From Bdellovibrionales bacterium (lineage in GTDB: Bacteria > Bdellovibrionota > UBA1018 > CAIMNF01), in contig CANHQK010000007.1 in assembly GCA_947462765.1 (NCBI GenBank), positions 1,438-65,437 of the forward strand: a stretch of 64,000 bases of DNA, written 5' to 3'. Positions 52,377 to 55,500 of the stretch are shown here, piece after piece. The position numbers and the translations under genes are program-made. Numbering within the stretch: the first letter of the stretch is position 1; each line of letters opens with the position of its first letter. A model generated the notes under the pieces. It was given only the letters and a program-made list of their open reading frames with translations. It was not told the origin of the DNA and did no database searches.

Positions 52377-54338
52377 ATGGAGTTGTTGAAACAGACCTCT
52401 CTCATCCTCGGCCTGGCGGCGCTCACTCTCGGAGTATGGACCTTGTTCCGACACTGGCGGAACAGGATCTCGGTTCTGTTCTCTTTCCTGTGCTTCCTGG
52501 TTTCTGTTTGGGCGCTCAGTTTTGTTTCTCACGCAACCCTCTTCGGGCGCCTGTCCTACGATATCCATCTGTTTTGTAATGTACTGCTCGCACCCACCGG
52601 GGTCCTGCTCATGTCGAGCTTTTTAGTCCGTAAAGTCGACGCGATCAGCCGTTTCCTGTTCCTGGCATCTCTTGCCGGTGGCTCGGTCTTGTGTTTCCTC
52701 ATTGCCTTTTCCCTGGGACAGGGCGAGATATTCCGGCTTGCCACCGGATTCTGGCCTTCATTCATCTTGGTTGAATACGTCCACCTGCTGGTGCTCGAGG
52801 CTCGGTGGATCACCAGGGGGGATGCGGGTCACATTCCCCCGGGCAGGAAAATGGTGCTCTATCTCGGTCCCATCGTCTCACTTGCATTTTGCACCTTCGA
52901 CCATATTCCTTTGATGGGCACTGTGATTCCCTCCATCGGCAATCTGCTGTTCGCGGTGTATCTCGGATTCGCAAGCCAGATCATCAATCCTAGGAAGCTC
53001 TTCGGGCTGGATTCCCTGGTTTCGAGGTTCCTCGCGGTTCTCACTTTGTCCCTGATCCTGACCGGGTTTTTCGCTCTTCTGTACAACACTATCAGCCGCT
53101 CTTTTCCCTTGTTCCTGCTCAATTCGTTCTTGATTTCCTTTGCGGTGCTCGCGCTCTGGAGCCCCCTCGTGACCTTCTTCCGCTTCATGGGCCGGAAGAT
53201 CTTTCCGCGCAAGCAGGATGAGGCCCGCGAGACCGTCGACCGATTCCGGATCCTCCTTTCAGCAGTCACTTCCCTGGAGGATCTGAAAGAGGGACTGAGA
53301 CAGTTCTTCTTGAAGACCTACCGTGCAGAGCGGGTCGAGATCACCTTGGATCCTTCTGGGATCTTGCTTCCTGAAACTGTGGAAGCCTACTGTCTTGAAC
53401 TCAGAGAAAAGGGCCTGCCTCCTGTCCTGCACCGGGTGATTTTGGAACAGGAAAGAGATGCCCTGTACACAAAAGAGGGACGCCGGGCTCTCGAGTTGAT
53501 CCTGGAGTACCTCGATGCAGGAGGGTTCGATGTAGTCCTTCCCGCCCATGTTTCTGAAAAAGTGGTGGCGCTCATCAGGATCCGGCTTTCATCAGGTCAC
53601 GCGCTCTCTGAAACGGGTTTTTTCCCTTTTCCGGGTGCTCCCGAGTTGATTGCCGAGCTGGCAGAGGGTACGTGTCGTCTGGCGCGGATCGGTGAGGCTC
53701 GTGAGCGAGAAAGGCTGATGTTGCTGGGTGAAATGGCTGCGGGACTGGCTCATGAGATCCGGAATCCCTTGGGCGCCATTCGTGGAGCGGCGGACCTCTT
53801 GCGGGAGCCCGGCCCCTTCGTCGATGTCATTCGGGACGAAACAGCCCGCTTGAACCGTCTGGTGGGGCAGTTCCTTGATTTCTCCAGGAATCCGCAAGAC
53901 GGGCGTCAGTGGGTCGATCTGTGCACCCTTCTCCCTCGCGCAATCCAGAATACCAACTTTCTAGTCCCTCCGGCCATTCGCCTCAGATTCGAGGGGCGCG
54001 AACTGCCGGTGTCAGTCGAGGTGGTGCCGGACTCGATCCAACAGGTGCTCTCCAATCTCATTCAGAATTCCGTCAAGGCGCTGGAGGGGGTTCGTGATGC
54101 CGAAATCATCGTGCGGGTCGAGCAGCAGGGTTTCTCGGTGACGGACAATGGAATCGGTATGAGTGACTCGGTGAGGTCGAGAGTGTTGGAACCGTTTTTC
54201 ACCTCATCCGTGGGTGGAACCGGTCTCGGCCTTTCCATTTGCGAGCGACTCATCCGCTTTGACCGTGGCTGGCTCAAGCTCGAATCGACTCCGGGGCAGG
54301 GGACCCGCGTGGAAGTGGGGTACCCGGATGCGCGATAA
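52377..54338 (+). CDS. Sensor histidine kinase with N-terminal multi-TM (7TMR-like) sensor
   Basis: About 8 TM helices, then HisKA (LAHEIRNPLGAI) and HATPase_c (GTGLGLSI). Confidence 0.85.
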   Translation: MELLKQTSLILGLAALTLGVWTLFRHWRNRISVLFSFLCFLVSVWALSFVSHATLFGRLSYDIHLFCNVLLAPTGVLLMSSFLVRKVDAISRFLFLASLAGGSVLCFLIAFSLGQGEIFRLATGFWPSFILVEYVHLLVLEARWITRGDAGHIPPGRKMVLYLGPIVSLAFCTFDHIPLMGTVIPSIGNLLFAVYLGFASQIINPRKLFGLDSLVSRFLAVLTLSLILTGFFALLYNTISRSFPLFLLNSFLISFAVLALWSPLVTFFRFMGRKIFPRKQDEARETVDRFRILLSAVTSLEDLKEGLRQFFLKTYRAERVEITLDPSGILLPETVEAYCLELREKGLPPVLHRVILEQERDALYTKEGRRALELILEYLDAGGFDVVLPAHVSEKVVALIRIRLSSGHALSETGFFPFPGAPELIAELAEGTCRLARIGEARERERLMLLGEMAAGLAHEIRNPLGAIRGAADLLREPGPFVDVIRDETARLNRLVGQFLDFSRNPQDGRQWVDLCTLLPRAIQNTNFLVPPAIRLRFEGRELPVSVEVVPDSIQQVLSNLIQNSVKALEGVRDAEIIVRVEQQGFSVTDNGIGMSDSVRSRVLEPFFTSSVGGTGLGLSICERLIRFDRGWLKLESTPGQGTRVEVGYPDAR

Positions 54339-55500
54339 AGTCGTGATCATCGATGATGAGGCGAACCTCAGGATGATCCTCGAGGCGACCTTGGTGCGTG
54401 CGGGGTACGATGCTGTCGCATTTCCCGGATTGGAAGAGGCGAAGAGTGTCATCGACACGGAGGATCTGGCGGCAGTCCTGACCGACCTCCAGATGCCCTC
54501 CCATGACGGGATGGCGGTCCTGCAATATTGCCATCAGTACACCCCCGATCTGCCCGTGATCCTCCTGACCGCTTATGGAACGGTAGAGAGGGCGGTTGCA
54601 GCACTCAAGGCCGGTGCTTTCGACTTCGTGGTCAAACCTTTCGATCATGGCGACCTTCTCCGCACCCTTGAAAAAGCCTGTCAAAATCGCCGATTCCGTC
54701 GTCGGGAACCGGCGCTCGAGATCATGAGTGCGGTGGGTGTCGGTCCGGTTCCCGTCCCGCTATTCGGTCAGGAGCCTTCGACTGTGCGCTTGAGGGAGGA
54801 GGTCGAAAGGATAGCGAAGACGGACTCGGCTGTCTGGATGTCCGGAGAGGTTGGTACGGGCAAACGATCGGTGGCCTATGAGATTCACCGTAAGTCCGAT
54901 CGTTCGCGGCATCCCTTCGTCCAGGTGTCATGCGCCACCTTGCCCCCGGTCTTCCAGTTGACGGAGCTGTTCGGTGTCGAAAAGGGGGCTAGCCCTGTGA
55001 ATTTGTTCAGCAAGCCAGGGGTCTTCGAGTTGGCCCAGGGAGGAACGCTCTTCATCGAGGAGATCGACAGCCTGTCGATCGAAGCCCAGAACGCGTTTTT
55101 CACCTTGCTTGAGACCGAGAGGTTCTCGAGAGTCGGAGGGGTCCGCCTGTTTCCTGCCGACTTCAGGATCATTGCGACCAGCTCGAAAAATCTCGATCTC
55201 GAGGTCCGGGACGGGGCATTCCATGTCGAACTTTATTACAAACTCACCGCTTCGATGCTGGAGCTCCTGCCACTCCGGAGCCGCACGGCGGATATCGAGA
55301 CGGATCTTCTGCCCTATTTTCTTTCGCGTGCTTGCCGACGCAGGGGGGTTCCATTGATGAACATCACTCCCGAGGCATTGGATGTTCTTCTCGGTCGATC
55401 ATGGCCGGGAAATCTTGGCGAACTCGAGCGTGCGATTCAGAGAGCGGTGGATCATGCCCGGGGAGATACACTCGGGATTCAGGATTTCTCGAGAGATTGA
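54328..55500 (+). CDS. NtrC-family response regulator (receiver + AAA+ sigma-54-interaction-like domain) with degenerate GAFTGA and no C-terminal HTH
   Basis: Receiver domain (VVIIDDE...DLQMP), Walker A GEVGTGKR, ELFGVEKGASPVN in place of [15 protein letters not shown], and SWPGNLGELE. Start overlaps the kinase stop. Confidence 0.85.
   Translation: MRDKVVIIDDEANLRMILEATLVRAGYDAVAFPGLEEAKSVIDTEDLAAVLTDLQMPSHDGMAVLQYCHQYTPDLPVILLTAYGTVERAVAALKAGAFDFVVKPFDHGDLLRTLEKACQNRRFRRREPALEIMSAVGVGPVPVPLFGQEPSTVRLREEVERIAKTDSAVWMSGEVGTGKRSVAYEIHRKSDRSRHPFVQVSCATLPPVFQLTELFGVEKGASPVNLFSKPGVFELAQGGTLFIEEIDSLSIEAQNAFFTLLETERFSRVGGVRLFPADFRIIATSSKNLDLEVRDGAFHVELYYKLTASMLELLPLRSRTADIETDLLPYFLSRACRRRGVPLMNITPEALDVLLGRSWPGNLGELERAIQRAVDHARGDTLGIQDFSRD

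Follow-up and report, generated by a model that had tools for sequence, protein, structure and literature searches.

A Bdellovibrionales response regulator with a degenerate sigma-54-type AAA+ domain, no helix-turn-helix and a probable loss of sigma-54 activation

A 64,000-nucleotide stretch of contig CANHQK010000007.1 from a Bdellovibrionales bacterium, analysed here as a whole and called the window, encodes a response regulator that consists of a receiver (REC) domain, a degenerate sigma-54-type AAA+ domain and a lid, with no helix-turn-helix (HTH) at the C-terminus (Table 1). The protein is probably no longer a sigma-54 activator. The explanation preferred here, with somewhat less assurance, is that it forms the phosphorylation-controlled pseudo-AAA+ output module of a three-gene operon in which sigma-54 activation has been lost. 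The receiver, the partner kinase and the AAA+ fold are intact, and the replaced residues P223, H299, G364 and R180/S181 are fixed under purifying selection. A preliminary description of this DNA had offered two outcomes for such a variant, action from solution or loss of the sigma-54 function. The second is favoured by the present analysis and the first disfavoured, and the changes also extend to the arginine fingers, sensor II and the Glu switch.

The sigma-54 contact loop is the first of the replaced motifs. In a phmmer search against the PDB, the segment ELFGVEKGASPVNLFSKPGVFELAQGGTLFIEEI aligns without gaps to Aquifex NtrC1, and GASPVN falls exactly on the GAFTGA loop, residues 214-219 of NtrC1. 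The replacement of GAFTGA reported in the preliminary description is therefore real, and the ungapped alignment leaves no GAFTGA loop at an offset position. Activation is mostly lost when the F or T in the centre of GAFTGA is altered (PMC3162934), and a change of T to P inactivated NifA (PMC4641369). Across the clade to which the regulator belongs, the loop follows the pattern GA-x-P-x-x, with P223 present in 96% of members; the tip positions 222 and 224-226 vary, and position 222 takes at least ten different residues. A retuned sigma-54 contact is disfavoured because these tip positions differ freely among clade members.

Residues for catalysis and its coupling are replaced as well. Both arginine fingers, R293/R299 in NtrC1 and R162/R168 in PspF, are gone, one changed from R to H (H299) and the other from R to K (K305), and sensor II has G364 in place of its arginine. 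The Asn of the conserved LNCA motif, the Glu switch by the role of PspF N64, is S in the regulator. A comparison of 46 family members with 20 canonical relatives identified 11 positions at which conservation reaches at least 85% in each group, with different residues in the two: E180R, L181S, L209F, T223P, L258F, Q262E, A284T, R299H, D301E, R364G and N368R. Elsewhere the clade has turned variable, at F222 (the F in GAFTGA), at N201 and at two arginines close to L1/L2. In NtrC1, the gamma-phosphate is contacted by R299, the trans arginine finger (PMC7175178).

The C-terminus of the protein lies only 27 residues past the sensor II motif. Pfam places Sigma54_activat (PF00158) at residues 146-309 (E 6e-43) and AAA_lid_14 at residues 317-389, and finds no HTH_8 (PF02954) in the regulator. 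The NCBIfam models NtrC, AtoC and NtrX, which are 450-470 positions long, match it only as far as about position 380, with scores far under the cut-offs. When three canonical tails were compared with the window by tblastn, no Fis-type HTH was found in any frame (best E 0.4, with no match near the gene), so the missing domain noted in the preliminary description is not restored downstream by a corrected frame. There is also no room for a C-terminal HTH, because the convergent dprA gene overlaps the 3' end of the regulator gene. Two metagenome loci, L086 and L087, carry a nucleotide-identical copy of the regulator gene. At the other end, the gene starts with the ATG at 54328 and runs to the stop at 55500; all homologues start MRDK..., which rules out the GTG at 54214 chosen by the mechanical open reading frame (ORF) call.

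In contrast to these losses, the input side and the fold are preserved. The receiver has the phospho-acceptor D53, encoded by nucleotides 54484-54486, together with D9/D10, T81 and K103, and D10, D53, T81 and K103 are invariant across 47 family members. The AlphaFold2 (AF2) model of the regulator has a mean pLDDT of 89.8. Foldseek fits the AAA+ domain of this model onto NtrC1 (1NY6) at 1.5 A and a TM-score of 0.94. The kinase encoded just upstream, which the preliminary description had already placed there, contains HisKA (residues 450-505) and HATPase_c (551-650) behind a polytopic membrane N-terminus (about residues 1-275) without a large periplasmic domain. The kinase-regulator pairing is kept in all loci examined.

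A search of 5.8 billion proteins shows that the regulator is not an isolated case. HTH-less proteins of 380-400 aa make up about 80 clusters at 44-94% identity to it, and beyond them there is an abrupt fall to proteins of 450-490 aa that carry HTH_8 and reach at most 40% identity. By their source names, the members of this narrow clade come from Bdellovibrionales and Bdellovibrio metagenome assemblies (Bdellovibrionota). In a library of 1.84 billion representatives at 50% identity, the core clade is represented by one full-length cluster, P0025 (689 bits); next come the outlying degenerate clusters P0092 (429 bits) and P0186 (321 bits). Of the 150 nearest representatives, these three are the only ones in which a GAFTGA-like loop, FRxDLxxR, GN.R[EQ]L and the HTH tail are all missing.

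Selection on these sequences is strong. Compared with an 88%-identical orthologue, dN/dS is 0.04 for the whole gene and 0.043 for the AAA+ domain; dS is saturated in this comparison, so that the values are approximate, yet they lie far below 1. The degenerate residues are fixed clade-wide under strong purifying selection. This bears on the possibility that the gene is decaying, or that it is a phosphate sink in which the receiver alone is relevant. Many catalytic residues are indeed gone and some relatives are further reduced, but the AAA+ domain is constrained to a degree similar to the whole gene, the substituted residues are themselves nearly invariant, and full-length frames persist in the approximately 80 divergent clusters, which makes this explanation very improbable.

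Constraint also extends to the clade-specific linker between the REC and AAA+ domains, REPALEIMSAVGVGPVPVPLFG. Its conservation is 0.72-0.79 in the clade versus 0.38-0.51 in canonical relatives, and its dN of 0.019 (residues 126-147) is the lowest of all segments. Residues 132-138 have an AF2 pLDDT below 50 and are predicted to be disordered. No segment of the protein is better conserved within the clade than this linker, of the form REPALExMSAxGVGPVPxPLFG, though it is predicted by AF2 to be disordered.

The outlying relatives carry the degeneration further. The Walker A Lys is missing in P0092 (GSGRR), P0186 (GPPGALLRD), P0081 (GAGQR) and P0058 (GTGAR), and ATP use appears to be dispensable in the outer clade. 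The order of regulator and dprA is kept in the loci of P0092 (L090) and P0186 (L091), and the whole operon is kept in L091.

Canonical counterparts of the system occur in related genomes. In L005 and L006, from Bdellovibrionia metagenome-assembled genomes, and in L088 and L089, a polytopic kinase of the same type is followed by a canonical regulator of 454-478 aa with GAFTGA or GAFSGA, DE, FREDLYYRL, GNIRQL and a Fis HTH. These syntenic Bdellovibrionia-type regulators have the same polytopic partner kinase and locus as the window regulator. The L005 kinase shares 33% identity with the window kinase over its full length (E 6e-100), and the same locus also retains the MinD-like gene (51% identity), the membrane-protein gene (48%) and dprA (49%). 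Canonical bacterial enhancer-binding proteins (bEBPs) of the NtrC family, including the L005 and L006 regulators, P0082, P0087, P0143 and NtrC1 (1NY5/1NY6), likewise consist of REC, AAA+ and lid and are 38-41% identical to the window regulator. Unlike them, the window regulator has no Fis HTH and shows GASPVN, R293H, R299K, R357G, N to S and GKE to GKR.

Phylogenetic analysis supports a common origin of the degenerate proteins. In a neighbour-joining (NJ) tree, the HTH-less proteins all form one clade in 200 of 200 bootstraps, and this clade joins six canonical Bdellovibrionia-type regulators in 176 of 200. The ancestor of the regulator was a canonical sigma-54 enhancer-binding protein. Judged by their motifs, the orthologues form a series that leads from a canonical activator to forms without HTH, GAFTGA and arginine fingers, and on to forms that also lack the Walker A Lys, with kinase and receiver intact and the locus unchanged throughout. 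Such a natural series within one orthologous two-component system offers a good case for the passage from an AAA+ motor to a pseudo-ATPase signalling module. The canonical loci L088 (3807-4640) and L089 (1-36) have a flagellin gene a few kb upstream of the kinase, which hints that the ancestral system may have been linked to motility.

The preliminary description had also considered the regulator as a possible activator of two sigma-54 promoters at 42600 and 43037, a link that finds no support: the regulator belongs to a conserved operon of its own, with a sigma-70-like promoter and with its synteny kept. The two elements look like real sigma-54 promoters. Both are on the plus strand and have -24/-12 spacing, TGGCAC-N5-CTGCA (TGGCACATCCTCTGCA) at 42600 and TGGCAT-N5-CTGCA (TGGCATGCTCTCTGCA) at 43037, and each is followed after about 70-80 nt by a small paralogous ORF (42679-42864 and ~43119-43298). 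The products of these ORFs have a signal-peptide-like N-terminus and a common ...SKQSGKA.C...GSGR end, and the stretch AAGCGGTACGT[CT]GAG is found downstream of each promoter. The promoter pair is 11-12 kb away from the regulator gene, with unrelated genes (CNNM transporters, Lon, RluD) in between. Because its sigma-54 and hydrolysis residues are lost, the regulator is unlikely to activate this pair, and a canonical activator is expected elsewhere in the genome.

Activators that lack a DNA-binding domain and act from solution do exist. Chlamydia CtcC and Helicobacter FlgR have the same REC-AAA+ layout ending after the lid; both are active sigma-54 activators in which GAFTGA and the catalytic arginines are kept, whereas the window regulator lacks those residues. 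A regulator of this kind, contacting sigma-54 from solution through a variant L1 loop with Lys/His fingers and perhaps serving the promoters at 42600 and 43037, is quite improbable here. The strong PF00158 match, the retention of the Walker A Lys along with two acidic residues in Walker B, and an L1 hairpin of unchanged length in the AF2 model would all suit it, as would the fact that the 64-kb window, with its two good -24/-12 elements, encodes no other EBP. However, the changed F and T of GAFTGA belong to the class that mostly abolishes activation, with T to P the very change that inactivated NifA, and the L1 tip varies within the clade. In addition, the equivalents of R293, R299 and R357 are all lost, the Walker A Lys is missing from outlying orthologues, and the promoters are distant and lie behind unrelated genes.

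Atypical EBPs without GAFTGA, such as TyrR, PhhR, HupR, HsfA, NtrX, VpsR and the NtrC proteins of R. capsulatus and Caulobacter, act at sigma-70 promoters; some have non-consensus Walker motifs, and for some ATP binding rather than hydrolysis is relevant (PMC6158489; bioRxiv 10.1101/2023.06.06.543975). They share with the window regulator an EBP fold with a defective or deleted GAFTGA, and NtrX is among its best structural matches. Even so, an atypical EBP of the type of VpsR, NtrX, TyrR, HupR or the R. capsulatus or Caulobacter NtrC, working at sigma-70 promoters, is a highly unlikely identity for this protein: VpsR, NtrX and Caulobacter NtrC are described as DNA-binding, but the window regulator has no HTH in any frame. 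To our knowledge, every characterised atypical EBP retains a C-terminal DNA-binding domain.

Comparison with published sequences places the L1 change in a wider setting. Francke et al. 2011 give T4 to P as the preferred change in a set of about 110 EBP homologues whose GAFTGA is defective. One of the proteins listed there, gi 42524429 of B. bacteriovorus HD100, from the same phylum, shows in a 39-residue snippet (residues 206-244) GAMPGV, again with T4 to P, and the Walker B sequence LYIAE, at coordinates almost those of the window regulator. Literature searches found no characterised REC-AAA+ regulator in which HTH and GAFTGA are both missing, and none for Bdellovibrio NtrC-like regulators. 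PexR of Myxococcus proved to be canonical.

The gene divergent from the operon raises a further possibility. It encodes a MinD/FleN-like ATPase for which the antiactivator FleN is the best match in the PDB (E 1e-20), and FleN binds the AAA+ domain of FleQ. As in the FleQ-FleN system of Pseudomonas aeruginosa, an EBP-type AAA+ protein here has a gene for a FleN-like MinD ATPase as its neighbour, and the structural matches include FleQ-FleN complexes. FleQ itself is not phosphorylated and carries both GAFTGA and an HTH. The regulator might then be an anti-activator or co-regulator of other AAA+ or MinD-type proteins, one that poisons or tunes mixed rings with canonical bEBPs in a phospho-dependent way, or that pairs with the neighbouring ATPase as FleQ does with FleN, in a module whose transcription function is gone. 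Its AAA+ oligomerisation fold is intact and its trans-acting catalytic residues are gone, as in a poisoning subunit, and the MinD-like gene adjoins the operon in all core-clade loci and in the canonical locus L005. However, this adjacency may reflect general collinearity (Lon-RluD-DnaJ-MinD), the MinD-like neighbour is absent from the canonical loci L088 and L089, and the FleN alignment covers only the N-terminal half of the ATPase. A role of this kind is unlikely overall. A functional link between the ATPase and the operon is speculative, and a FleQ-FleN-like pairing in the window is a conjecture by analogy.

The preferred explanation, a pseudo-AAA+ output module under phosphorylation control, can be put as a sequence of steps. 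The kinase, which probably senses something within the membrane, would phosphorylate D53, and this would change the conformation or oligomeric state of the pseudo-AAA+ domain. In this species the domain may still bind nucleotide, with hydrolysis that would be poor or nil. The output would be a protein-protein interaction rather than remodelling of the sigma-54 holoenzyme or DNA binding. Several points weigh against this picture. The protein-protein output is reached by exclusion, and the core clade still has the Walker A Lys as well as two acidic residues in Walker B, while H299, K305 and the new R180 may conceivably support slow hydrolysis. Furthermore, the single origin seen in the NJ tree is perhaps inflated by shared functional-site substitutions and long branches. 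A more specific version, in which the receiver-controlled dead AAA+ domain serves as a phospho-gated adaptor that poisons or caps bEBP rings or controls the FleN-like ATPase, with the linker as a new interaction motif, is doubtful. If true, it would be the more interesting outcome, as the pseudo-AAA+ module would then be a phospho-switchable anti-activator or adaptor.

These findings also matter for annotation. Databases label such proteins "sigma-54-dependent Fis family transcriptional regulator" or "DNA-binding NtrC family response regulator", and the clade shows that labels of this kind can err on both counts. Recognising it is useful for correcting reconstructions of sigma-54 regulons in Bdellovibrionota.

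Table 1. Positions in the window of the regulator gene, its domains and motifs, and neighbouring features
Feature	Positions	Strand	Extent	Remarks
Response regulator gene: REC, degenerate sigma-54-type AAA+, lid, without HTH	54328..55500	+	390 aa	
Receiver (Response_reg)	54340..54669	+	aa 5-114	Pfam PF00072, E 4e-24
REC-AAA+ linker, clade-specific	54703..54768	+	aa 126-147	
Walker A, GEVGTGKRS	54844..54870	+	aa 173-181	Lys present; R-S follows where the canonical sequence has E-L
L1 loop, GASPVN	54985..55002	+	aa 220-225	On NtrC1 GAFTGA, ungapped
Walker B, LFIEE	55048..55062	+	aa 241-245	E244/E245 at NtrC1 D238/E239
FHVELYYKL for FREDLYYRL	55219..55245	+	aa 298-306	H299 = NtrC1 R293; K305 = NtrC1 R299
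Sensor II, GNLGEL for GN(I/V)R(E/Q)L	55408..55425	+	aa 361-366	G364 = NtrC1 R357
dprA, convergent	55479..56378	-		Pfam DNA_processg_A E 9e-45; covers last 22 nt of regulator gene
Cognate histidine kinase gene	52377..54338	+	653 aa	Stop overlaps regulator start by 11 nt
Conserved polytopic membrane protein gene, first of operon	51717..52376	+	~219 aa	In all clade loci
Sigma-70-like promoter, TTGTCA-17-TACGAT	51682..51710	+		Just upstream of operon
MinD/FleN-like ATPase gene	50643..51638	-		Pfam ParA/CbiA; divergent from operon

The gene order around the operon is identical in all core-clade loci examined. Genes for Lon, an RluD-like protein, DnaJ/HTH_25 and the MinD-like ATPase precede it on the minus strand; the membrane protein, kinase and regulator follow on the plus strand, after which dprA and the gene of an ABC ATPase lie on the minus strand again. 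The convergence of regulator and dprA is common to all degenerate orthologues. The membrane protein that opens the operon belongs to no Pfam or NCBIfam family, even at E = 10.

L001-L003, L084 and L085 share the conserved sigma-70-like element upstream of the operon; in L002 its sequence is TTGTCA...TATAAT. No sigma-54 -24/-12 element was found upstream of the window operon. The canonical locus L005 has TGGCAT-N5-TTGCT 44 bp upstream of the membrane-protein gene, a single observation; the canonical loci L006, L088 and L089 have no comparable well-placed sigma-54 element. In the window (51639-51716) and in L001-L003, L084 and L085, the sigma-70-like promoter (TTGTCA ... TATAAT/TATACG) leaves only about 8-10 nt to the ATG with which the membrane-protein gene starts, a spacing that suggests a leaderless or near-leaderless operon mRNA.

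Further features were observed around these genes. Between the MinD-like ATPase gene and the RluD-like gene lies an unusual fusion of a DnaJ (J) N-terminus to a RodZ-like HTH_25 C-terminus (49954-50640, minus strand), which occurs in all related loci. In L087 (11269-12041), dprA is called as two small plus-strand ORFs in an otherwise identical locus, which could be a frameshift or an assembly difference. Farther away, window positions 34597-37174 encode a homologue of the type II secretion system/type IV pilus (T2SS/T4P) platform protein F, followed by an RHS-repeat/DUF6531 protein.

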